Shown here: one piece after another, positions 10,731-45,116 of the stretch
Layout of the letters: every line of letters starts with the position of its first letter
Position numbering within the stretch: position 1 is the stretch's first letter
Assembly: GCA_021779205.1 (NCBI GenBank)
Contig: JAJYBE010000001.1
Span: forward strand, 1 to 47,249
From: a bacterium
Lineage (GTDB): Bacteria; Patescibacteriota; Minisyncoccia; Moranbacterales; UBA2206
Reading direction: 5' to 3'
Length of the DNA: 47,249 bases
The notes under the pieces: generated by a model
What the model was told of the DNA's origin: nothing
The model's database searches: none
Seen by the model: the letters and a program-made list of their open reading frames with translations, nothing else
Translations under genes and position numbers: made by a program

Positions 10731-10739
10731 AAATATTTT

Positions 10740-10972
10740 CTAAAAATGCTTCTCAGTAAAAGCACGTCCGGATCCTGATTTTAAATATTTTTCAAATTCA
10801 AATGCTTTGTATTTGTCAGAAAAAGCAAAATAACACATCAACTCTATGGGCAATAAATCTTTGGTGGCCGGAACATATCCGCAATTATGCCTTTTTATTC
10901 GTTCTTTTAAATCAGAGGCGCAACCAATATAGGGTTTTCATTTTTACATTTTAAAATATAAACGTAATGCAT
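10740..10972 (-). pseudogene. GIY-YIG nuclease mini-gene with a 1-nt frameshift
   Basis: Own translation gives MHYVYILKCKNENP, then a shift near 10930-10935. After the shift it reads YIGCASDLKERIKRHNCGYVPATKDLLPIELMCYFAFSDKYKAFEFEKYLKSGSGRAFTEKHF and a stop. The length is 233 nt, which is not a multiple of 3. Confidence 0.75.
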
Positions 10973-11043
10973 AGTGGGCGAAACCCGCCTTCGCGTGCTC
11001 CCGGCGGACTTTGTCCGCCGTAGCCCGCTTCGGCGGGCGAAGG
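10973..11043. repeat. Cluster of GC-rich hairpins between the GIY-YIG pseudogene and tRNA-Ser
   Basis: On the minus strand: gcccgc-cgaa-gcgggc, ggcggac-aaa-gtccgcc, and cgcgaaggcggg. The last is the same core as the GIY-YIG cassette inverted repeats. Confidence 0.7.
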
Positions 11044-12057: not shown

Positions 12058-14277
12058 ATGAATACTCTTCTCAAAAACATTCCCAAAATTACTCCGAAAT
12101 ATGTCAAAACTTTGGAAAAATTGGGACTATTCACTATCCAAGATTTTTTGTTCTATCTCCCCCGTCGTTATGACGACTTTTCAAAGACCGTCGCGCTTTC
12201 CGAAGAATATCTCAACTCTGTCATAACTGTCTGCGCCATCGTGACCAAGGTAAAGTTAAACCGCATTTTTCGACGCAAATTGACGATTGCAGAAGTAATC
12301 TTTGAAGATGAAAACCAAACGCCCTTGAAAGCCGTCTGGTTCAATCAACCTTTCATTCTCGAATCAATGCCCATCGGCACCGAAGTTCGCTTGTCTGGAA
12401 AGCTAAAATTAAAAGGCAAATATTTCACACTTTCTAATCCCGCTTGGGAACGTGCCAGCCGCGAAAAAACCAATACTGGGCAACTCGTACCGGTCTACTC
12501 GGAAACACCCGGCATCACCTCAAAATGGATCCGCTGGCAGATGAAAACTTTCTTGGAGAAAAACCAAAATTTGGAAGATTTTGTTCCAGAAGAATTACGT
12601 AAAAAATTGCATCTCTATTCTCTGACCTCGGCGCTCCGCCAATTGCACTTTCCGGAAAATGAGGAGAAACTGCTCATCGCCAAGAAAACTTTCGCTTTTC
12701 GTGAAATGTTTTTGATGCAGCTGAAAACCTTGCAGATGAAAAACGTCTGGGAAGCGCAAAGTGCTCCAAGTCTTCGGTTCGATGAAGAATTGATTGAAAA
12801 ATTTATCGAAAATTTACCTTTCCAATTGACCGGTGCGCAACACAAGGCTTCGATTGAGATTCTCAAAGATTTGGAAAAAACTTGTCCCATGAATCGCCTG
12901 CTTAATGGAGACGTGGGCACTGGAAAAACGGTCGTCGCGGCCATTTCCGCGCTGAGCGTACTTTCCCAAAATCAGCAAGTGGCCATTCTTGCTCCAACTG
13001 AAGTTTTGGCGTTGCAACACTTCCAATCATTTTCAAAACTTTTCAAAAATTATGATTTTAATGTTGCTTTGCTTACGAGTTCTTATAAACTAATTAACTG
13101 TTGTCATTCTGAGCGAAGCGGAGCGCAGTCGAAGAATCTGCAAGCAATTACACCAAAGCTTTCTAATAAATCACTAGCCCCGCGATTATCGTCAGCAGAT
13201 CCTTCGACTACGTCCCGAGTACAGGACTCCGCTCAGGATGACATGTCAAAAATTACGCGCGAGCAAATGATCAGTCAAATTGAAAGTGGAGAAATAAACT
13301 TAGTCATCGGCACACATGCCATTATTCAAAAAGATGTTAGTTTTAAAAATTTAGCTTTGGTCATTATCGACGAACAGCACAGATTTGGCGTCACGCAAAG
13401 ATCTGTCTTGCAACAGGAAACCATGGAATTTAAAGATGGTAAAAAAAAGACTATCCCCCACTTGCTTACAATGACTGCTACGCCAATTCCACGAACTCTA
13501 GCAATTGCATTTTTTGGCAGTCTTGATTTGTCTGTTTTAGACGAAATGCCCCGTAACCGAAAACCAATCAAAACCAAAATTGTCTTGCCGACACAAAGAG
13601 ATCAGGTCTATGCTTTTATGCGCCGTGAGATTGGTGCCGGCCGCCAAGTATTTGTCATTTTGCCCTTTGTCGAAGAATCAAAAGTGCTCACGGAAGTCAA
13701 GGCCGCCACCGAAGAGCATAAAAAATTATCTCTCATTTTTCCGGAATATTCTTTGGGACTTTTGCATGGTCGGCTCAAATCAAAAGAGAAAGAAGCGATG
13801 ATGCAAGATTTTAAGAAGAAGAAAAGTCAAATTCTCGTTTCCACTTCCGTTGTCGAAGTAGGCATTGATATTCCCAATGCGACCATTATGCTCATTGAAA
13901 ATTCCGACCGTTTCGGCCTTTCTCAACTCCACCAATTCCGCGGCCGAGTCGGTCGCGGCGCTCATCAATCCTATTGTTTTCTCTTCACTGACTCAACCAC
14001 CCAGACGTCTCTCGAACGCTTGCGCGCGCTGGAAAAAAGTAATGATGGTTTCAAACTTTCCGAAATTGATCTCCAGCTGCGCGGCCCCGGTCAACTCCTT
14101 GGCAAGGCTCAATCCGGCCTTTCGGACATTGCGATGGAAAATCTTAATAATTTAAAATTAATTAAGATTGCACGCGCGGAAGCAGAGAATATTCTAAAAA
14201 CTGATGCAAAACTAAAAAAGCATCCACTACTGGCGAAGGCCTTGGAAAAGTTTGCGAAGGCTGTGCATTTGGAGTGA
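12058..14277 (+). CDS. recG: ATP-dependent DNA helicase RecG with an internal insertion of about 52 aa
   Basis: 739-aa ORF with an N-terminal wedge/OB region, motif I GDVGTGKT, Ia LAPTEVLALQH, II IIDEQHRFGV, LTMTATPIPRTL, and QLHQFRGRVGRG. Confidence 0.92.
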   Translation: MNTLLKNIPKITPKYVKTLEKLGLFTIQDFLFYLPRRYDDFSKTVALSEEYLNSVITVCAIVTKVKLNRIFRRKLTIAEVIFEDENQTPLKAVWFNQPFILESMPIGTEVRLSGKLKLKGKYFTLSNPAWERASREKTNTGQLVPVYSETPGITSKWIRWQMKTFLEKNQNLEDFVPEELRKKLHLYSLTSALRQLHFPENEEKLLIAKKTFAFREMFLMQLKTLQMKNVWEAQSAPSLRFDEELIEKFIENLPFQLTGAQHKASIEILKDLEKTCPMNRLLNGDVGTGKTVVAAISALSVLSQNQQVAILAPTEVLALQHFQSFSKLFKNYDFNVALLTSSYKLINCCHSERSGAQSKNLQAITPKLSNKSLAPRLSSADPSTTSRVQDSAQDDMSKITREQMISQIESGEINLVIGTHAIIQKDVSFKNLALVIIDEQHRFGVTQRSVLQQETMEFKDGKKKTIPHLLTMTATPIPRTLAIAFFGSLDLSVLDEMPRNRKPIKTKIVLPTQRDQVYAFMRREIGAGRQVFVILPFVEESKVLTEVKAATEEHKKLSLIFPEYSLGLLHGRLKSKEKEAMMQDFKKKKSQILVSTSVVEVGIDIPNATIMLIENSDRFGLSQLHQFRGRVGRGAHQSYCFLFTDSTTQTSLERLRALEKSNDGFKLSEIDLQLRGPGQLLGKAQSGLSDIAMENLNNLKLIKIARAEAENILKTDAKLKKHPLLAKALEKFAKAVHLE
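13102..13244. mobile_element. 143-bp MITE-like inverted-repeat element inserted in frame in recG
   Basis: Left arm at 13102-13140: tgtcattctgagcgaagcggagcgcagtcgaagaatctg. Reverse complement of the right arm at 13197-13244: tgtcatcctgagcggagtcctgtactcgggacgtagtcgaaggatctg. The element is GC-rich relative to its surroundings. Confidence 0.75.
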
Positions 14278-14279
14278 GT

Positions 14280-14308
14280 TTGACTTTTGGGCTGAATTGT
14301 GCTACAAT
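14280..14308 (+). promoter_or_regulatory. Strong sigma70-type promoter
   Basis: TTGACT (14280-14285), a 17-nt spacer, then TACAAT (14303-14308). Downstream lie the SD AAGGAGG (14356-14362) and the ATG at 14369. Confidence 0.65.
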
Positions 14309-14368
14309 TAAACCATCGTAGTCTTAACAATAGAACAGTTTTAAAAACCCATACCAAGGAGGTAGAAG

Positions 14369-15012
14369 ATGGAATTTTCGGTTATCGCGCTGGTTTTGAC
14401 AATAGCAGTGGTCGCTTTAGAGGGGTGCGTCTCTTACATCAATGGAACGTTCTCCTCAAGGCAGTGGAGACACGCAAACCTTTCCTTTTTAAAACACTGG
14501 GGGGGTCAGTCGGTGACATGTTTATTTTTCCAATCATTAACGCCATCATTACACCTTGTCTTCTTCATTTTGATCTTTGGTATATGCCAGGATTTCTTGT
14601 ATCCCTCATGATTACACTGAGATGTCACAAGGCATGGTGGCCAGATCCTTTTGACAAAAACGCGCAAGGGTTCATTCTAATGAATAACCCGCCTCTATTT
14701 CCAACCCCGCATTGCTACTCAAAAAATTATTGGTATCTTGCAGTAACTCCCGCAGGCTGGATTCATGTTTTCTTTATGACCTGCCAAATCACTATTTTGG
14801 GAGGGTACCTTTTCACGCCGATGCCAAGATCTGTAATTAATATTGTCTCATTATTACTGGCAGTGTTTTTACCACTAGGAGTGATTGAGCCTGGCATCGT
14901 TCAATCAGGAGGAATCAAAAAGTTAACTATCCGAAAATATGTTAAAATTAGTGGAATCTTCATTGCGCTAATAGAGACAGTTTTCGTGATTAGACTCATC
15001 AAGTTGAACTAA
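14369..15012 (+). CDS. Polytopic membrane protein, interrupted by a -1 frameshift at a G7 tract (14499-14505)
   Basis: Frame A is 14369-14611. It starts 6 nt after the AAGGAGG SD and encodes a signal/TM N-terminus, MEFSVIALVLTIAVVALEGC. Frame B is the body of track ORF 14299-15012 and continues as SVGDMFIFPIINAI... Frame B equals frame A minus 1 at ctGGGGGGGtc. Confidence 0.6.
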
Positions 15013-15045
15013 AAGTTTATCGTTCTATAAATTGAACGGTCACGC

Positions 15046-15084
15046 ACCCGGACGTAAAGTTATTACGTCGTGGGTACTTTGTTT
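15046..15084 (+). terminator. Rho-independent terminator candidate
   Basis: Imperfect stem acccggacgtaa / ttacgtcgtgggt, followed by ctttgtttt. Confidence 0.5.
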
Positions 15085-15089
15085 TATTT

Positions 15090-15498
15090 ATGTCATCCCC
15101 GCGAAGGCGGGGATCCAGACACCACAAGGCTAATTATTATACAAAATCGAGAGATAGATCCCTCCACTTACTGTTATCCTTTTCAATTAATTTTAGCTTC
15201 CAATTTCTGTTCCATCTTTTGAGTTGTTTTTCTCTGGCAATAGCACTGACGATATCATTTGTTTGTTCAAAATAGACTAGAGTTTTTGCGTTATACTTTT
15301 TTGTAAATCCATCAATCAGTCCTTGTTTATGTTCAAAAACTCTTTTTACTAAATTTGAAGTTACTCCAATATACAAAGTTCCATTTCTTTCACTAGCTAG
15401 AATATATACAAAATAATCCTTAGTTATCATTGCAATAATTCGTTTTCTCTTTATGGGGCACTGGTGGTACCTGGATTCCCGCCTTCGCGGGAATAACA
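15090..15498 (-). mobile_element. GIY-YIG mini-gene cassette bounded by 35-bp terminal inverted repeats
   Basis: Left repeat at 15090-15124: tgtcatccccgcgaaggcggggatccagacaccac. Reverse complement of the right repeat at 15464-15498: tgttattcccgcgaaggcgggaatccaggtaccac. They match at 30 of 35 positions, and each arm holds its own cccgc-gaa-gcggg hairpin. Confidence 0.75.
15137..15430 (-). CDS. GIY-YIG nuclease family protein (97 aa)
   Basis: MITKDYFVYILASERNGTLYIGVTSNLVKRVFEHKQG...AREKQLKRWNRNWK. The track ORF extends to 15499, but that extension (MLFPRRRESRYHQ..) is a translation of the inverted repeat. Confidence 0.85.
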   Translation of the reverse strand: MITKDYFVYILASERNGTLYIGVTSNLVKRVFEHKQGLIDGFTKKYNAKTLVYFEQTNDIVSAIAREKQLKRWNRNWKLKLIEKDNSKWRDLSLDFV

Positions 15499-15536
15499 CC
15501 TAAATTAGATTTGAATTAAAAAATCAAGCCAATCCT

Positions 15537-37006: not shown

Positions 37007-39814
37007 CTAGAGGTATTTCCCCGTCCAACTTCCTTTGCATTTTTTGAGTTCCGCCGGCGATCCCTCAAAGACAATCTCTCCTCCACCCGATCCGCCTTCC
37101 GGCCCAAGATCAATTACCCAATCAGAATTGCGAATAACATCAACGTTATGCTCAACAACCAAGACGGTATTGCCTTTATCCACTAGCGCATCCAAAACGC
37201 CGAGTAGTTTTCGAATATCTTCAAAGTGAAGACCAATCGTTGGTTCATCTAGAATATAGAGCGTTTTACCTGTCGCACGACGCGAAAGTTCCGTTGCTAA
37301 TTTAATTCTTTGCGCTTCTCCGCCGGAAAGATCCACAGCACTTTGTCCCAATTTTAAATAACCCAAGCCGACTTTTTCCAATGTGGCTAATTTTTCCGTC
37401 ACTAATTTAGAATTTTTGAAAAAGACTAAAGCATAACTTACGCTCATATCAAGCACTGCCGCAATATTTACTCCGCGGTATTCAATCTCAAGCGTCCGCT
37501 GATTATATTTCGCGCCAGAACATGTTTCGCATGGCACATAAACATCCGGCAAGAGATGCATTTCAATTTTTTTCTTGCCTTCGCCCTGGCAATCTTCGCA
37601 ACGGCCACCTTTCATATTAAAACTAAAACGGCTCGCATCATAGCCACGCGTGTGTGCTTCTTCAGTATCGGCAAACAGCTCACGAATAAGGGAAAAAACT
37701 CCCGTGTAAGTTGCGGCATTCGAGCGTGGCGTGCGACCAATCGGCGCTTGATTGATGCTAATCACCTTGTCGATATTTTCCATTCCGGTGATTTTTTTGT
37801 GTTTCCCTGGTGCTTCTTTCGTGTTGAAAAAATATTTTGCCAAACCCTTGGATAGAATGTCCGTCACTAATGTTGATTTTCCCGAACCAGAAACTCCAGT
37901 GAGAGAAATAAACTTTCCTAATGGCAAATTAACGTTGATATTTTTCAAATTATGCTCCGTCGCACCTTGGATTTTGATAAATTTTCCCAAACCCTTGCGC
38001 GCTTTTTTCCTGTCTCCCACATGCCGCTTTCCATTCAGATACTGCGCCGTGACCGTCTTGGATTTCAAAAGTTTTTGCAAATCTCCTGAAAAAATCACCT
38101 CGCCGCCTTCTTCGCCCGCACCCGGCCCCATATCAATAATCCAATCGGCCCTGCGGATAATTTGTTCATCATGCTCCACTGTAATGAGAGAATTTCCCGC
38201 TTCACACAATTCTTCCATCGTTGCAATCAGCTTTTCCGTATCGCGGTTATGCAATCCAATCGAAGGCTCATCCAAGACATAGGTAATGCCGGAAAGTTCC
38301 GAGCCGATCTGCGTAGCAAGACGAATGCGCTGACCTTCACCGCCGGAAATCGAATTAGCTGAGCGGGAAAGTGAGAGATAGCCCAATCCTACATTCTGAA
38401 GGGCAGCACTGCGGGCTTTCATTTCTTTGATTAATGGTAAAATAATACTTTTCTTGGCGCTACTCAGATTAGCTTTCTCCAACTCCCCTAAAAAGCGAGA
38501 AAATTCCACAAGCGATAGATCCACTACTTGATCAATGGATTTCCCAGCGACAAGCACGGAAAGATATTCGCCCTTCAAGCGTTTGCCCAGGCAAAGCGGA
38601 CAAACTTTTTCAATCATGTATTTTTCAATTTCGCTGCGCAAATAGTTGGAATTCAGTTCTTCATATTTCTTTTTCATCGTCGGAATAACGCCTTCGAAAA
38701 TGATGTTGGGATCATTTGAGCCATAGAGCACGATGTTCAAATGTTCCCGACTGATTTTTTTCACCGGGATGTCAATCGAAAAGCCATATTTATCCCCCAG
38801 CATTTTCAAGATATTGTTTCCGCTCGAAAGCACGCTTGAACGTCCGCCGGATTTATTCCACGACAAAATTGCCCCTTCGGCGAGAGTGAGATTTTTGTTC
38901 GGAATCAGCAAATCCTCATCAATTTCCTTGATCACACCCAAGCCCGAGCAGTGTTGACAAGCACCCTCGGGACTATTGAAAGAAAAATGTTTTGGCGTAA
39001 TGTCCGCAACCTCAAAAAAACATTTTTTGCACACAAAATCGCGATTATACATTTTTTCTGTTTCATTGTCCCTAATCACAACCGCCACACCTTTGCCTAG
39101 TTTAAAAGCTGTTTCGATTGAATCCAAGATTCTCTCGCGATCAGGATTTTTCTTGTTCAGAACTATCCGATCAATCACAATTTCCGCATTGCATGGTTCA
39201 TCATTTTCTATTTCATTTTGAACTAGCGCCTCAGTGAGCGACATTATCTTTCCCCGAAGACGAATCCGCGCATAACCCAGCTGACTGACGCTTTTCAACC
39301 TTTCTTTCAAGCTTTGATCTTTGCCATTCAGTTTTGCGAGAATGGCAATATTAGTCTTATCAGGAGAATCCAAAATATCATCCAAAACTTCCGAGTTGGT
39401 AATTTTTTCCAATGGAGTTTTACAATGCGGACAATGTGGCACGCCCACTTTCGCATAAAGCACCCGCAAATAATCATAGATTTCCGTGAGTGTCCCGACA
39501 GTTGAACGCGGACTGCGTGCAATACTTTTTTGATCAATCGAAATAGTCGGAGTAAGATTTTCAATTTTATCCACATCCGGCTTGGCCGACACATCAAGAA
39601 ACTGCGTCGCATAACTGGACATACCCTCTAAATATCTACGGTTGCCTTCAGCATAGATTGCATCAAATGCCAAAGAAGATTTACCCGAACCGGAAAGTCC
39701 CGTGATAACCACTAATTTGTCCCGTGGAACTTCCACATTGACATTTTTCAAATTATTCACCCGCGCTCCACGCACAATAATCTTGCTGCGATCCTTGGGA
39801 TTGTTTTTTAACAT
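37007..39814 (-). CDS. uvrA: Excinuclease ABC subunit UvrA, 935-aa paralogue
   Basis: Two ABC modules (GLSGSGKSSLAF and [11 protein letters not shown]; signatures LSGGEGQRIRLA and [12 protein letters not shown]) plus all Zn modules (CPHC, CKKC..CQHC, CPLC, CEDC..CETC). Confidence 0.92.
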   Translation of the reverse strand: MLKNNPKDRSKIIVRGARVNNLKNVNVEVPRDKLVVITGLSGSGKSSLAFDAIYAEGNRRYLEGMSSYATQFLDVSAKPDVDKIENLTPTISIDQKSIARSPRSTVGTLTEIYDYLRVLYAKVGVPHCPHCKTPLEKITNSEVLDDILDSPDKTNIAILAKLNGKDQSLKERLKSVSQLGYARIRLRGKIMSLTEALVQNEIENDEPCNAEIVIDRIVLNKKNPDRERILDSIETAFKLGKGVAVVIRDNETEKMYNRDFVCKKCFFEVADITPKHFSFNSPEGACQHCSGLGVIKEIDEDLLIPNKNLTLAEGAILSWNKSGGRSSVLSSGNNILKMLGDKYGFSIDIPVKKISREHLNIVLYGSNDPNIIFEGVIPTMKKKYEELNSNYLRSEIEKYMIEKVCPLCLGKRLKGEYLSVLVAGKSIDQVVDLSLVEFSRFLGELEKANLSSAKKSIILPLIKEMKARSAALQNVGLGYLSLSRSANSISGGEGQRIRLATQIGSELSGITYVLDEPSIGLHNRDTEKLIATMEELCEAGNSLITVEHDEQIIRRADWIIDMGPGAGEEGGEVIFSGDLQKLLKSKTVTAQYLNGKRHVGDRKKARKGLGKFIKIQGATEHNLKNINVNLPLGKFISLTGVSGSGKSTLVTDILSKGLAKYFFNTKEAPGKHKKITGMENIDKVISINQAPIGRTPRSNAATYTGVFSLIRELFADTEEAHTRGYDASRFSFNMKGGRCEDCQGEGKKKIEMHLLPDVYVPCETCSGAKYNQRTLEIEYRGVNIAAVLDMSVSYALVFFKNSKLVTEKLATLEKVGLGYLKLGQSAVDLSGGEAQRIKLATELSRRATGKTLYILDEPTIGLHFEDIRKLLGVLDALVDKGNTVLVVEHNVDVIRNSDWVIDLGPEGGSGGGEIVFEGSPAELKKCKGSWTGKYL

Positions 39815-39858
39815 AAAGAAATAAGAGTTACATTTTTTTAAAAGACGCCAGAGCCATT

Positions 39859-39898
39859 ACTAGGTAGAAATTTTACACTAGTTTTTAGATTTTGGCAA
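39859..39898 (-). promoter_or_regulatory. Candidate promoter with an overlapping inverted repeat, upstream of the 935-aa uvrA
   Basis: Minus strand: TTGCCA (39893-39898), a 17-nt spacer, then TAAAAT (39870-39875). The repeat is ACTAGTGTA (39874-39882) and TACCTAGT (39859-39866). Confidence 0.45.
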
Positions 39899-39919
39899 AC
39901 CATCAGCCATTCCTATCCG

Positions 39920-40594
39920 CTATTCCAACGTCAAAACCTTGCTATTCTCCCTTAGCCACTTCCGCGCTTGTTTATATTCTGGCATCACCGCTGCAACTTT
40001 GTTCCAAAATTTTGCCGAATGATTTTTTTCCAAGATATGCATCAGCTCGTGGATGATGACATAATCCACAACACGCTCAGGCGCCATAATCAGCCGCCAA
40101 TTGAAATTCAAACTATTTTTCGGCCCGCATGACCCCCAATTAGTTTTGGCATTGGAAATTTTGAGTGTTGAATATTTAAGATTTAATTTACTGGCAATAA
40201 TTTTTGTCCGTTCGCCAATTTTTTCCTTAGCTTGTTTTTTGTACCAATCATGCATCCGTGCCTTTGCCCGCCACAAAAAAACACGCGGAAAAAGCAGCTC
40301 GAAATCATCAGTAATTTCAATCTTAAGTCCACTGGTCAGCGCTAGTTTATGTTTTTTCCCCAGATACAAAAATTCTTCTCCTTCAAAAAAAGTTTTTCTC
40401 TCCGCTTTCGGTCGCTTTTCAAATTCCCGCATCTTCCTTTCAATCCAAACAAATTTTTCCTCAACTAATTTCTCAATGTAACTCAAAGGCGTCCACATAG
40501 GCGCACGCACAACCAAAGTCGCGTCAACAGAAATCACCAGCGCGATGTTTTTTCTTTTTGAGCGGATGATTTTTGAGATTTTTATTTTTGACAT
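39920..40594 (-). CDS. DUF45/YgjP-like (SprT/WLM-like fold) zinc metallopeptidase
   Basis: 224-aa ORF with the HExxH motif in VVDYVIIHELMHILEKNHSAKFW, which is typical of YgjP-family proteins. Confidence 0.75.
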   Translation of the reverse strand: MSKIKISKIIRSKRKNIALVISVDATLVVRAPMWTPLSYIEKLVEEKFVWIERKMREFEKRPKAERKTFFEGEEFLYLGKKHKLALTSGLKIEITDDFELLFPRVFLWRAKARMHDWYKKQAKEKIGERTKIIASKLNLKYSTLKISNAKTNWGSCGPKNSLNFNWRLIMAPERVVDYVIIHELMHILEKNHSAKFWNKVAAVMPEYKQARKWLRENSKVLTLE

Positions 40595-40606
40595 AAATTA
40601 ATAATT

Positions 40607-40798
40607 GTCATTCCCGCGGAGGCGGGAATCTAGTCGCAAGGCTATCTTAGGATATACACCCACCAAACCAAGAGCGACTTCTGATTGATTAGATTTAGTC
40701 TTCTAATTTTTCTATTATTTATATTGCTTATCAAAACACCAGAATGATCATTTTTTACTAAGTCTATACACTGGATTCCCGCCTCCGTGGGAATGATA
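40607..40798. mobile_element. 192-bp cargo-less derivative of the GIY-YIG cassette (MITE-like)
   Basis: Left at 40607-40634: tgtcattcccgcggaggcgggaatctag. Reverse complement of the right end at 40771-40798: tatcattcccacggaggcgggaatccag. They match at 25 of 28 positions. The left flank continues ..caaggcta as in the 15090 element. There is no intact ORF inside. Confidence 0.7.
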
Positions 40799-40833
40799 TG
40801 TTGGTTGGTTTTTATTTTTTACAAAGTATTTTT

Positions 40834-42105
40834 CTACTCCATAAACCTCTTCTTTCTCAACTTCTTATGATACATAATTGCAAAACGATGCGCTTCGTCG
40901 CGGATGTGTTCTATGAGTTCGTCGGATATCTCCGGCACACTGCCAAAAGCATAGCGATCCAGTTTTTTGCGGGTCGGACCTTTGGCGACAGCCAAAAGCG
41001 GAATTTCCAGATGAAAATTTTTGAGCACGCGACGCACAGCGGTGAGATGACCTTGTCCGCCGTCTAAAATTATGAGGTCTGGCATCGGCCAATTATTGCC
41101 AAATCTGCGCCCCAGCACTTCCGCCATTGAAGCAGTGTCATTCGCACCCTCTACAGTTTTAATTTTAAATTTGCGATACTGACTCTTGTTCGGACCAATT
41201 TCCCCATTCGCATTATCAAATACCACCATTGATCCAACGCTCGATTTTCCGAAAATATTGGAAATATCATAACCCTCAATGCGAAATTTTGAATTTTGAG
41301 TTTTGAATTTTAAATTTTTTTGGAAATTGGAAATTGGAAATTGGAAATTATCATCGCCCTTAGCGATGAGCGCTATATCCTGGATGTGTTGCAACGCAAA
41401 AATCGCATTGCGCACTTTAAGCGCTTTTTCAAATTCCTGCTTCTCGCTTAGCGCTGACATTTCTTTTTTCATTTTGGCAATGAGACTTCTTTTCTTTCCT
41501 TCCAAAATCATCCAGATGCCCCGGATATTTTTCGCATAGTCCTCCTTCGAAATCGCCCCGGCATACGGCCCCGGACAAAGCCCGATCTGAAAATCCAGAC
41601 ACCCCTTTTCCGTTTTTTGCGCCTTGGAATGATAGGGAAAAATTTTCCTCAGGATTTTCAACGCGATTTCAATATTTTTCTTGGAAATATACGGCCCGTA
41701 GATTTTACTAAATTTTGATTTTATATCACCATCTTGATCCATCTCCCTTTTTCGTAAAAATAATATACGCGGAAAATCTTCTTTCGTAATTGCCACATAA
41801 GAAAATGATTTGTCATCTTTTCCGTCCACATTCAATTTCGGCTGCCACTTCTTGATCTGTTCTTGCTCTAAAATATATGCCTCCAAAACTGTTTCGGTTT
41901 TCCGAACTTCAATATCCGCCACTTGAGAAATAAACATTTCAATCGGTCGCGCATATCTACTGCGCCCTTGAAAATATGATCCGACCCGGTTTTTGAGCGA
42001 CGTCGCTTTACCCACATACAAAATTTCTCCGGCATTATTCCGAAAAATATAGACCCCCGGAGAAGTCGGCAGACTTTTCAGTTTTTTACTAATTTTAGTT
42101 GACAT
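40834..42105 (-). CDS. uvrC: Excinuclease ABC subunit UvrC, short form (423 aa, no C-terminal (HhH)2 domain)
   Basis: GIY-YIG N-terminus (PTSPGVYIFRNNAGEILYVGKATSLKNRV), UVR-like segment (EKQEFEKALKVRNAIFALQHI), and endonuclease domain (RIEGYDISNIFG..SMVVF..YRKFKIK..PDLIILDGGQGHL). It ends 20 aa after DEAHRFAI. Confidence 0.88.
   Translation of the reverse strand: MSTKISKKLKSLPTSPGVYIFRNNAGEILYVGKATSLKNRVGSYFQGRSRYARPIEMFISQVADIEVRKTETVLEAYILEQEQIKKWQPKLNVDGKDDKSFSYVAITKEDFPRILFLRKREMDQDGDIKSKFSKIYGPYISKKNIEIALKILRKIFPYHSKAQKTEKGCLDFQIGLCPGPYAGAISKEDYAKNIRGIWMILEGKKRSLIAKMKKEMSALSEKQEFEKALKVRNAIFALQHIQDIALIAKGDDNFQFPISNFQKNLKFKTQNSKFRIEGYDISNIFGKSSVGSMVVFDNANGEIGPNKSQYRKFKIKTVEGANDTASMAEVLGRRFGNNWPMPDLIILDGGQGHLTAVRRVLKNFHLEIPLLAVAKGPTRKKLDRYAFGSVPEISDELIEHIRDEAHRFAIMYHKKLRKKRFME
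41283..41348. repeat. Two abutting heptamer arrays inside uvrC
   Basis: (GAATTTT-like) x5 at 41283-41318, then (TGGAAAT) x4 at 41321-41348. They encode NFQFPISNFQKNLKFKTQNSKF on the minus strand. Confidence 0.85.
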
Positions 42106-42125
42106 TTGCTTTAAATCGGCGATAA

Positions 42126-45116
42126 TCAGTGACTTAAGATTTCCTTAAGATATTTCCCCGTCCAACTCTCCTTGTCCCACTTCGCCACTTCTTCCGGCGT
42201 ACCGGAAACAATCACACGCCCACCTTCTTTTCCGCCTTCCGGTCCCAGATCAATAATCCAATCGGCGGTTTTTATTACGTCTAAATTATGTTCAATTACA
42301 ATCACTGTGTTTCCCGCATCAACCAAACGATTGAGAATTCCCAACAGTTTTTTGATGTCATCAAAATGCAAACCGGTTGTCGGTTCGTCAAGAATATAAA
42401 GCGTATCGCCAGTTGCACGCCTGGAAAGTTCAGTGGAAAGTTTGATGCGTTGCGCTTCTCCGCCGGAAAGTGTCGTGGCGGATTGACCGAGTTGAATGTA
42501 GCCCAGACCGACATCTTCCAAGACTTTCAGTTTGTCAGCAATATCGTGAAAACTAGCAAAAAATTCGCGCGCCTCAGTTATGGTCATCACCAATACATCA
42601 GCGATATTTTTATCACGATACTTCACTTTGAGCGTTTCGCTGTTGTAGCGCTTCCCGCCGCAAACATCGCAAGGCAGATAAACATCCGGCATAAATTGCA
42701 TTTCGATTTTGTTGTACCCATCGCCCTGACAATTATCACAACGTCCGCCTTTGACGTTGAAAGAAAAGCGACCCGGGGAATAGCCTTTTGCTTTGGCGTC
42801 CCTTGTTTCTGCGAACAGTTCGCGGATCGCCGTAAATAGTCCGGTGTAGGTTGCTGGATTCGATCTCGGTGTACGTCCAATCGGCGACTGATCAATCATA
42901 ATCACCTTGTTGAGATAATGATCGCCAACTATTTCACTGTGCTTGCCCGGCCGTTCCAGTGAGTGCATAATTTTAGCCGAAAGCGCTTTGTAAAGAATAT
43001 CCCCTACTAGTGTTGATTTTCCTGAACCGGATACGCCTGTCACGCAAGTCAAAACTTTGAGCGGAAATGACACGGTAATGTTTTGCAAATTATGCTCGCG
43101 CGCTCCTCGCACCACAAGTGTTTTTTTATTTTTTAAAGATCGCCTGGAAGCCGGAATTTCAATCTGCAAATCTCCTCGCAAATATTTGGCGGTTAGTGAT
43201 TTTTCACTTTGCATTACTTCTGCCGGCGATCCCTCAGCGACAATTTCCCCACCATATTTTCCCGCTCCCGGACCAATGTCCACAAGATAGTCCGCCGCAC
43301 GCATTGTTTCTTCATCATGCTCCACGACGATCAGGGTATTTCCTACATCTCTGAGTTGCAAAAGTGTCGAGAGCAATTTTGCATTATCGCGAGCGTGGAG
43401 ACCAATTGATGGTTCGTCCAGAATATAAAGCACGCCAACTAATTGAGAACCGATTTGCGACGCCAGGCGGATGCGCTGCGACTCTCCGCCGGCAAGAGTA
43501 TTGGCAGCGCGACCAAGCGAGAGATAACCAAGACCCACATCTTGCAAAAAACCTAACCGATTTTGAATTTCTTTGAAAATCCGACCGGCAATCAGTTCTT
43601 CGCGTTTGCTAAAATTTATTTTTTGAAAAAAATCCAAAGTCTCTCTCACACTGATAGTGGAAACTTCATGGATATTTTTATCCCCGACTGTCACCAAAAG
43701 CACTTCTTTTTTATAGCGAGATCCAAGGCAAGTCGAACAAGGATTTTGGGACATATATTTCTCAATGTCTGTACGCACTGCTTCTGAATCCGTCTTGAGA
43801 TAACGATCTTGCAAATAGCCCGCCACTCCTCGCCAACGCATATTATATTTCCAACTTGATCCGGTCTTGCTCCGCAACGTCACAGGAATTTCATCCGCTT
43901 CTTCTTCGCCAATCATATCAGTTGCTTCAGGTCCGCCATAGAGCAAGGTTTTGAAATCATCATCGGATAAATCCCGCAACCGCACATTGTCACGAATGTG
44001 ATAGAAATTTGTCACCGCGCGAAGAATCGTTCCCTGCCAATTATTTTTTTTATAACTCCACGGCATGATTCCGCCTTCGGCAATGGTTTTATTCATATCC
44101 GGCACAACTAAATCAGGATCGATTTCCTTCTTCATGCCCAGACCATCACAAGATGGACAAGCACCAAACGGACTATTGAAAGAAAATAGGCGTGGCTCCA
44201 ACTCAGGAAAATCAATCTCATGAATTGGACAAGAAAAATTCTGATTAAAAATCATCTCACTGGCTTCATTTTTTTCACTAGCCTTGCTTTTATTTAGCAT
44301 TTTACCCTTTTTGTCATTGGAAATTGAGATTTGGGATTTGTTTAGAAATTGGAAATTAGAAATTGGAAATTTCACTTTGATTATTCCTTTCGACAAATTC
44401 AACGCTTGTTCCACGCCCTCAAAAATCCGTGAAATATTTTCCGAATTTATTTCTACTTTATCAACCAATATATCAATATTATGTTTTTTATAGCGTTCCA
44501 ATTTCACTCGCGTGCCAATCTTTTCATCCAATGCATATTTTTTTCCATTCACAATAGCAGTGGAAAATCCTCGCCGAAACATTTCTTCCAATAGAGTGGA
44601 ATATTCACCTTTGCGTTCCCGTACAATAGGAGAGAAGATTTCAATCACACAACTGTCTTTTGCCGATTTCTTATCTCCTTCCGTGCAAATATTTAAAATC
44701 CGATTCACTATCTCATCCGTCGAGAGCCTAACGATTTCTCGTCCGCAAATCGGACAATGCGCCATGCCAATTTTGGCATAGAGCAATCGCAGGTAGTCAT
44801 GAATTTCCGTCACCGTTCCCACCGTTGAACGCGGATTGTGCGAAGCGGCTTTTTGATCAATCGAAATCGCCGGACTCAGACCTTCGATCGAATCAACTTC
44901 CGGTTTTCCCATTTGTCCCAAAAACTGCCTGGCATAGCTCGAAAGACTTTCGAGATATCTCCGTTGCCCTTCGGCAAAAATAGTATCAAAAGCCAGCGTA
45001 CTCTTGCCTGAGCCGGAAATTCCCGTAAAAACAATAAACTTATTCCGTGGCAAATCAAGATTGATGTTTTTGAGATTATGTTCTCTTGCTCCGCGGATAA
45101 TTAATTCGTCTTGCAT
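42126..45116 (-). CDS. uvrA: Excinuclease ABC subunit UvrA, 996-aa paralogue
   Basis: [12 protein letters not shown] and [23 protein letters not shown] and [12 protein letters not shown], plus the Zn modules CPIC, CPSC, CSTC and CDNC..CDVC. Confidence 0.93.
44319..44371. repeat. Heptamer array (RGAAATT and degenerate units) inside the 996-aa uvrA
   Basis: Units read ggaaatt gagattt gggattt gttt agaaatt ggaaatt agaaatt ggaaatt. They encode [18 protein letters not shown] on the minus strand. Confidence 0.8.

Follow-up and report, generated by a model that had tools for sequence, protein, structure and literature searches.

The window examined here is the whole 47,249-nt stretch of contig JAJYBE010000001.1, from a Moranbacteria-like genome of the candidate phyla radiation (CPR)/Patescibacteria, and the element in question is a 408-bp block within it (positions 15091–15498) that runs from TGTCAT to ATGACA and encloses a small GIY-YIG nuclease gene between two hairpin arms. 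We regard it as probable that this block is an Ssn–SRM module, that is, that its protein belongs to the Ssn family, that its arms are inward-facing copies of the hairpin repeat, and that the block has been relocated as a unit among related genomes. The Ssn/SRM system is already known, and the window contributes a new example of it from the CPR. An earlier reading of the same DNA (the original prediction) had proposed an intact 97-residue GIY-YIG gene between inverted repeats, with stem-loops in the arms and with gene and arms forming one discrete cassette. This description is upheld by the domain match (PF01541, E=1e-14), by 38-nt arms that are 84% complementary and both fold as stable hairpins in single-stranded DNA (ssDNA), and by the recurrence of the 408-bp block, with sharp homology ends, in several genomic contexts.

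The same prediction expected the mobility mechanism to be undescribed, but the system as such is already known from published work. In Neisseria meningitidis, SsnA (NMV_0044) is a 94-residue single-domain GIY-YIG protein. It binds the NTS hairpin (CGTCATTCCCGCGMAVGCGGGAATCYRG) solely in single-stranded form and cleaves the bound strand a few nucleotides 5′ of the hairpin; the complementary strand, double-stranded DNA (dsDNA), and RNA are not substrates (Chenal et al., Nat Commun 2025, PMC11893778). Cutting is lost with the substitutions Y6A, Y17A, and E64A; cleavage is affected by the three bases that precede the palindrome, and binding by the C that immediately follows it (PMC11893778). SsnA also reduces the transformation of N. 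meningitidis by NTS-bearing DNA (PMC11893778). Among ssnA homologues, 71% have at least one SRM nearby and 42% have an SRM on both sides; the NTS-ssnA-NTS layout was termed "identical to" an insertion sequence (IS), an analogy to RAYT/REP was drawn, and domestication was proposed, while mobility was not demonstrated (PMC11893778). The repeats themselves were described in 2013 as a CGTC-tagged superfamily of repetitive extragenic palindromes (REPs) that includes Neisseria dRS3 and Rickettsia RPE-4 and RPE-6, often lies downstream of genes, has members within DNA repair genes, and yielded no dedicated transposase (Di Nocera et al. 2013, PMC3733652). Our literature searches returned no report of mobility for Ssn-type blocks.

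The ssn gene occupies positions 15137–15430 on the minus strand, and PF01541 (residues 6–79) is the sole domain that Pfam detects in its 97-residue product. A tblastn search with this protein reached a 94-residue open reading frame (ORF) in the N. gonorrhoeae chromosome with E=5e-31, where Chenal et al. 2025 count proteins with E < 1e-10 as Ssn homologues. The two proteins align without gaps and are identical at 54/90 positions (60%), and Y9, Y20, and E67 of the window protein align to Y6, Y17, and E64 of the gonococcal ORF. We take this ORF to be the probable SsnA orthologue because its length and these three residues fit the protein of Chenal et al. In the gonococcal record (L131; NZ_CP119140.1, 1881887–1882956), the ssnA orthologue is unannotated, and PLSDB lists the 2.17-Mb chromosome as a plasmid.

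Across 92 homologues, Y9, Y20, R30, H34, E67, and N86 are at least 99% conserved. All 8000 scored candidates of the homologue search pass E ≤ 1e-3, so the family is very large, and identity stays at 55–73% across the CPR, Proteobacteria, Chloroflexota, Planctomycetota, Omnitrophota, and other groups. An AlphaFold2 model (predicted local distance difference test score 89) shows one compact, plain GIY-YIG fold whose nearest solved structures are UPF0213 BH0048 (1ZG2) and Slx1, with no Ssn structure among the PDB entries compared. Designed WD40 proteins, the only hits of the phmmer search of the PDB (E ~1e-15), were rejected as a repeat artefact arising from many weak K-x-WNRN matches rather than homology. 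The ssn ORF has a GC content of 29%, against 40% for the window and 41–43% for the neighboring genes. As far as its sequence tells, the window protein is a member of the Ssn family of hairpin-directed, ssDNA-specific nucleases.

A GIY-YIG domain is also the classic fold of homing nucleases, and the gene is present in some relatives and missing from others, as would be expected of a free-standing homing endonuclease gene that cuts an empty dsDNA target and is copied in by repair. The NCBIfam group I intron endonuclease model TIGR01453 does match the protein, but at 20.7 bits against a cut-off of 56; the NCBIfam scan returned no family above its cut-off and no Ssn-specific model. The protein has only 97 residues and no DNA-binding domain, an Rfam search of the window found tRNAs only and thus no intron, there is no intein or phage context, and a search of a phage collection found no homologue of the window Ssn. 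The insertion contexts described below are mutually unrelated, not one cognate site, and characterized Ssn relatives leave dsDNA uncut (PMC11893778). A homing gene is therefore a very unlikely explanation of the block.

The ssn-downstream arm (15091–15128, plus strand) consists of the SRM/NTS hairpin TGTCATCCCCGCGAAGGCGGGGATCCAG followed by the conserved subterminal stretch CAAGGCTA, and the ssn-upstream arm (15461–15498, minus strand) is the SRM/NTS hairpin TGTTATTCCCGCGAAGGCGGGAATCCAG, whose tag is GTT, not GTC. Together, they form the 38-nt inverted repeat mentioned above, and a hand count over the 35 positions considered earlier gave the same 30/35 matches. Between the upstream arm and the ATG lies a leader (15431–15460, minus strand; CATAAAGAGAAAACGAATTATTGCA) that contributes invariant columns to the cassette alignment. 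A sigma-70 promoter scan gave no convincing match in this leader and nothing above chance within the cassette. A longer ORF with a GTG start (15137–15499, minus strand), which would read through the arm (MLFPRRRESR...; MLFPRRRESRYHQ...), was rejected as the true gene because the closest homologues mostly have 94–98 residues and because the locus comparison places the ATG at an identical 68-nt offset from the arm in six related cassettes. Translated arms of the kind seen in this longer ORF are a probable source of the short peptides that recur on hypothetical proteins in the databases.

The motif TGTYATYCCCGCGRAGGCGGGRATC has four matches in the 47-kb window (15091 on the plus strand, 15474–15498 on the minus strand, 40606 on the plus strand, and 40774–40798 on the minus strand), versus none in 100 shuffled sequences, and the matches form two inverted pairs, 15091/15498 and 40606/40798. 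The published SRM search pattern is matched in full by the arm at 15091–15118 (TGTCATCCCCGCGAAGGCGGGGATCCAG). The remaining three arms deviate from it at one or two bases (the GTT tag, a loop base, or a decayed stem), the ssn-upstream arm solely at the tag, where C is replaced by T. Folded as ssDNA, the arm at 15091, the ssn-upstream arm, and the arm at 40606 form 8–10 bp hairpins of -12.2, -10.0, and -9.2 kcal/mol, respectively (z from -3.1 to -5.0), and the fourth arm, ending at 40798, is degenerate at -3.6 kcal/mol. A census of tagged hairpins in the window found three genuine inverted pairs (six units), the third of which lies inside recG. In a set of 57 distinct canonical arms, compensatory changes occur at 6/8 stem pairs; these arms were chosen with at most one stem mismatch, so the percentage of paired positions is uninformative. 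The window arms are tagged TGTC (one of them TGTT), and the 152 arms found beside ssn homologues begin with C in 54 cases and with T in 93. GCGAAGC and GCGAAAGC cores form unusually stable DNA mini-hairpins, which fits a role in single-stranded DNA. On motif and fold, the arms are assignable to the published NTS/SRM motif CGTCATTCCCGCGMAVGCGGGAATCYRG, and the repeats probably to the CGTC-REP/dRS3/RPE superfamily.

The pairing of hairpin and gene extends well beyond this genome. We surveyed 92 ssn gene copies in fetched loci from many phyla, with a flank limit of 165 nt, and found a gene-facing hairpin tagged (C/T)GTCAT upstream in 75/92 and downstream in 78/92 loci (82–85%). Hairpins facing the opposite way were found in 23/92 loci upstream and 26/92 downstream, and control windows at least 1 kb away contained a tagged hairpin in 10–13% of cases. 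The association is orientation-specific and six- to eight-fold over background, and the arm-end-to-arm-end distance in the surveyed loci has a median of 386 bp. The survey supports the hairpin–GIY-YIG association of the original prediction.

These numbers bear on an alternative in which the hairpins are static REP-like motifs, serving as terminators or mRNA stabilizers, that flank a small gene by chance and show no unit behavior. The hairpins do lie in the intergenic spacers of convergent genes, REPs are often found downstream of genes (PMC3733652), and the left arm follows an apparent intrinsic terminator of the upstream ORF, noted by eye and not listed by the consensus scan. Against chance flanking speak the orientation-specific enrichment, a block of identical length with sharp homology ends in unrelated contexts, and the fact that the hairpin is the biochemically defined target of a nuclease (PMC11893778). 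Some copies, moreover, sit in frame within recG, where a terminator would make no sense. We consider static motifs highly improbable.

Close Ssn relatives (77–87% amino-acid identity) were followed to their contigs in related Moranbacteria. Six distinct versions of the block were found, with 84–90% DNA identity, each starting with TGTCAT, ending with ATGACA, and measuring exactly 408 bp. The block lies beside ksgA and a UbiA-family gene (L081), beside DUF212 and Mur ligase genes (L082–84), beside gatB and miaA (L085–87), beside a solute-binding protein gene and type IV secretion system pilin genes (P0009), among unrelated ORFs (L126), and, in the window, L127, and L128, beside a glycosyltransferase GT4 gene. 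The gene contexts of the block thus number at least five, with flanks that bear no relation to one another. In the alignments, similarity starts at G-TGTCAT and stops at ATGACA-C, with G at position -1 for nearly every end; the bases just outside the block are G (-1) and C (+1) in the relatives, compared with A (15090) and C (15499) in the window. The closest copy (L126, 90.4% identity) lies in a context other than that of the window, with homology that covers exactly 15091–15499. The GT4-side context is common to the window, L127, and L128, yet those copies are just 86.3% identical. Paralogues within one genome (L004; L064 versus L080) likewise show homology from arm to arm only.

These comparisons support mobility of the block as a unit and show a sharply bounded element that was gained, lost, or relocated among related genomes, with no sign of recent activity. 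The low GC content of ssn, the high identity of Ssn across phyla, and, as described below, the absence of ssn from the recG/GT4 spacer of most relatives count in the same direction. The repeats are strongly associated with GIY-YIG genes, and their positions vary among relatives, which is the opposite of repeats that are mainly unassociated with such genes and fixed at orthologous positions.

The window cassette is located in the spacer between recG and the GT4 gene (14278–15536). In most of ~20 relatives, recG and GT4 are convergent, the spacer measures 6–100 bp, and no ssn is present. Elsewhere, the spacer holds a DNA glycosylase gene, HIT and HAD genes, a membrane ORF, or other families of palindromic repeats. 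L119, a distant relative, carries a different ssn cassette there, with arms of a second type (type B, see below), and L095 has a solo SRM arm beside GT4. The spacer is a general hot spot. A 27-nt stretch next to the GT4 stop codon (GATTTGAATTAAAAAATCAAGCCAATC, 15508–15534) is 100% identical in L094 (5177–5203) and L098 (1130–1156), where it is inverted relative to GT4.

Gene-less pairs of arms also occur. A cargo-less doublet of the cassette arm type lies at 40606–40798, between the uvrC stop codon and a ygjP-like gene, with arms at 40606–40633 (plus strand) and 40771–40798 (minus strand). The cargo-less ends reported earlier at 40607–40798 are real, the second arm being degenerate. The doublet has the subterminal CAAGGCTA in common with the cassette, and its interior shows no similarity to ssn, for which reason a decayed ssn gene was rejected as its origin. 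In L132, the closest relative, the ygjP-side arm alone is retained, and its loop is expanded; of two other relatives, L134 has no arm in the uvrC–ygjP spacer and L133 has no ygjP. Truncation of uvrC by the doublet was considered and rejected, 410–470 residues being the normal UvrC length in this clade; Pfam found no helix-hairpin-helix domain in the 423-residue UvrC. The surrounding region (37007–45116) is a repair gene cluster that encodes two UvrA paralogues (935 and 996 residues), the 423-residue UvrC, and a YgjP-like metallopeptidase. All SRM units of the window lie in or beside DNA repair genes (recG, uvrC), a location that was also noted for intragenic REPs in 2013 (PMC3733652).

The third pair lies within recG itself (12058–14277). 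As anticipated, an element with TGTCAT and ATGACA ends is present there: a cargo-less doublet at 13102–13243 (plus strand) that keeps the reading frame and belongs to a sister arm type (type B: TGTCATYCTGAGCG...AGTCGAAGRATCT). By eye, its arms closely match those around the L119 ssn. The insert is found in some RecG orthologues and is absent from others, among them P0127, P0131, P0132, P0133, P0137, P0139, and P0140. The alleles differ at one codon position, after SSYKL, which is a recurrent in-frame landing site: L091, L092, L096, and L098 have no insert, L100 and L106 have a 13-nt palindrome (TGTCATTCTGACA), L108 has a compact type-A doublet, the window, L088, L089, L090, and L109 have type-B doublets, and L094, L101, L105, and L112 have other repeat families. 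Read across orthologues, the recG alleles show clear insertion polymorphism of gene-less doublets, and doublets of two arm types have entered the same codon position repeatedly. The 13-nt palindrome may be a footprint or a seed.

A further repeat, at 10973–11043, had been listed as a partial copy of the cassette ends. It has just a 12-nt core in common with them and is one unit of a different, GC-rich repeat, so this assignment does not hold. The frameshifted GIY-YIG gene next to it (10731–10975, minus strand, and 10977–11035) belongs to another clade (KSGSGRAF type) and holds a fixed orthologous position between two tRNA-Ser genes. In L091 (5115–5960), arrays of the GC-rich repeat flank, on both sides, its intact 76-residue orthologue, which likewise lies between two tRNA-Ser genes; these arrays and the other-clade gene may constitute a second pairing of a GIY-YIG protein with a repeat.

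How the Ssn–SRM block might have moved can be outlined from its geometry. With the arms facing inward and the GTCAT tags outermost, each strand would present a single cleavable site, located at the 5′ edge of the block on that strand. By analogy with Neisseria SsnA, the cut would fall ~3 nt 5′ of the 28-nt NTS, and the homology of the block ends within ~3 nt of the position so placed. The window Ssn may cut its own arms as ssDNA, and such cuts, together with host replication and recombination, could let the block and the cargo-less doublets spread; in the cell, motif-bearing ssDNA, whether incoming or replicative, may be a further substrate of Ssn. One speculation is that extension from the 3′-OH of the flank displaces the element strand, which could then anneal through its 30–40 nt arms at another doublet. 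Because the complementary strand stays uncut and no rejoining of DNA is known for GIY-YIG enzymes, the block could not be excised as a single strand in the manner of IS200/IS605 elements, and it would depend on host functions in order to spread. For this block as for the published systems, transposition or homing is a hypothesis.

The following observations weigh against this reading of the Ssn–SRM block. No target-site duplication was found at the six distinct cassettes or at the doublets. Among the relatives, there is no clean empty site with near-identical flanks, the spacer differing in each, and a scan of metagenome contigs for joined cassette flanks (the empty allele) returned nothing. 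The recG/GT4 spacer holds different cargo among relatives (L088, L090, L091, L093–L119). The copies are just 84–90% identical, with no sign of recent activity, and because they differ by 10–16%, the moves look old rather than ongoing. Part of the cassette distribution is vertical because L127 and L128 have the GT4-side context of the window. There are just three arm pairs in 47 kb, and one arm reads GTT, not GTC, at the three bases for which an influence on cleavage has been reported. The NTS copies beside gonococcal ssnA (L131) have their tags toward the gene, opposite to the layout that dominates the 92 loci. We know of no DNA-joining activity for any GIY-YIG enzyme. Finally, the complementary strand of the NTS is left uncut by Neisseria SsnA, which gives one cut per strand (PMC11893778). 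The notion of a mobile family with MITE-like (miniature inverted-repeat transposable element-like) copies holds up in part: relocation as a unit and cargo-less derivatives speak for it, whereas target-site duplications are missing and the mechanism of transposition or homing is hypothetical.

A rival reading is a domesticated and now immobile host system in which, as proposed for Neisseria, Ssn acts at chromosomal SRM sites to restrict or trim ssDNA, whether incoming or replicative, and the arms around ssn are leftovers of an ancient element or serve autoregulation. The effect of SsnA on the transformation of N. meningitidis by NTS-bearing DNA (PMC11893778) is of this kind, and the 10–16% divergence of the copies, the GT4-side position common to the window and L127/128, the orthologous uvrC-doublet arm in L132, and an intact gene with conserved catalytic residues all fit it. 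Immobility leaves unexplained why the closest copy lies in another context, why tags point outward in 82–85% of loci across phyla, and why ssn is low in GC; six sites in 47 kb would also be sparse for restriction. We think such a system possible, but less likely than not.

At the other extreme, the block could be an active autonomous transposon of a new mechanistic class, with Ssn excising or copying it and the SRM doublets through hairpin-directed ssDNA nicks and without an HUH, DDE, serine, or tyrosine recombinase. The block ends ~3 nt from the expected Ssn cut and occurs in at least five contexts; cargo-less doublets exist in two arm types, including repeated independent in-frame insertions at one recG site; the missing target duplications are typical of ssDNA transposons; and no transposase had been identified for CGTC repeats in 2013 (PMC3733652). 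Autonomy is hard to reconcile with an uncut complementary strand and with the lack of mobility evidence in PMC11893778 or from literature searches. Neither recent near-identical copies nor an empty-site allele in the metagenome contigs was found, and joining activity is not known for these enzymes. We therefore regard an active transposon as rather unlikely. A milder form, in which NTS-ssn-NTS is or recently was an autonomous mobile element whose ssDNA nickase marks the 5′ edges while host replication and annealing complete the process, is put forward only tentatively; the Ssn family would then be the mobilizer of the CGTC-REP/dRS3/RPE repeats, including in-frame insertions of the recG type. 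If the autonomous reading were true, the mobilizer of these repeats would be one that has long been sought. Our comparisons bear on this question, the 2013 survey having found no enzyme for the CGTC repeats and the 2025 paper having speculated on an IS-like NTS-ssnA-NTS. A sharply bounded unit, ends close to the expected nuclease cut, and repeated recG doublets make Ssn-driven repeat spread directly testable, and the CPR cassettes offer compact 408-bp substrates for doing so.

Set beside known systems, the Ssn–SRM module has features in common with several and is closest to one. Classical IS elements and MITEs differ in that the window cassette and doublets lack target-site duplications. I-TevI-type homing endonucleases and UPF0213/Slx1-like proteins have the same catalytic fold, but the window protein has no DNA-binding domain and no intron or phage context, and its target would be an ssDNA hairpin rather than dsDNA or branched DNA. 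Like IS200/IS605 elements, the block has subterminal hairpins that would, by analogy, be recognized in ssDNA and cleaved at an offset, and it produces no target duplication; in IS200/IS605, however, both ends are cut on one strand and rejoined by the HUH enzyme, whereas the window sites lie on opposite strands and the enzyme family only cuts.

REP/RAYT modules and REPINs were reportedly described by Nunvar in 2010, Bertels and Rainey in 2011, and Ton-Hoang in 2012. The window module resembles REP/RAYT in having a gene between two inverted hairpins, gene-less doublets elsewhere, no target duplication, and, for the window by analogy, recognition of an ssDNA hairpin. It differs in its enzyme, which is GIY-YIG and not an HUH Y1 transposase, in a GTC rather than GTAG tag, and in a family for which no strand-joining chemistry is known; the GIY-YIG protein is the only ORF product between the arms, with no HUH Y1 (RAYT) or TnpA. 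The recG doublet recalls the Rickettsia RPE, being palindromic, in frame in a conserved gene, and absent from some orthologues. As in the CGTC-tagged REPs (PMC3733652), the repeats are short palindromes with an unpaired (C/T)GTC tag, mostly inverted dimers, and some lie in frame in DNA repair genes; unlike in that survey, which had no dedicated enzyme, the window repeats bracket ssn (as do those of PMC11893778), use TGTC, and include the long-loop type-B arms. The surveyed repeats are 20–40 bp palindromes with an unpaired CGTC tag at one end and a high copy number per genome; the 47-kb window has six units.

The closest relation is to Neisseria Ssn and NTS/SRM (PMC11893778), with which the window has in common a single-domain GIY-YIG protein of 94–97 residues with 60% identity and matching catalytic Tyr/Tyr/Glu, a 28-nt hairpin that is tagged GTC on its 5′ side and whose stem is immediately followed by C, and a gene flanked by its own sites. 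The window tag begins with T, not C; the window sites face inward with tags outermost, whereas those of N. gonorrhoeae ssnA face outward; three pairs in 47 kb stand against hundreds of clustered NTS copies in Neisseria; and the activity of the window protein is predicted. The host is a Moranbacteria-like member of the CPR, a group unmentioned in the main text of PMC11893778, and the comparative evidence that block and doublets have relocated as sharply bounded units is a modest addition to the published work.

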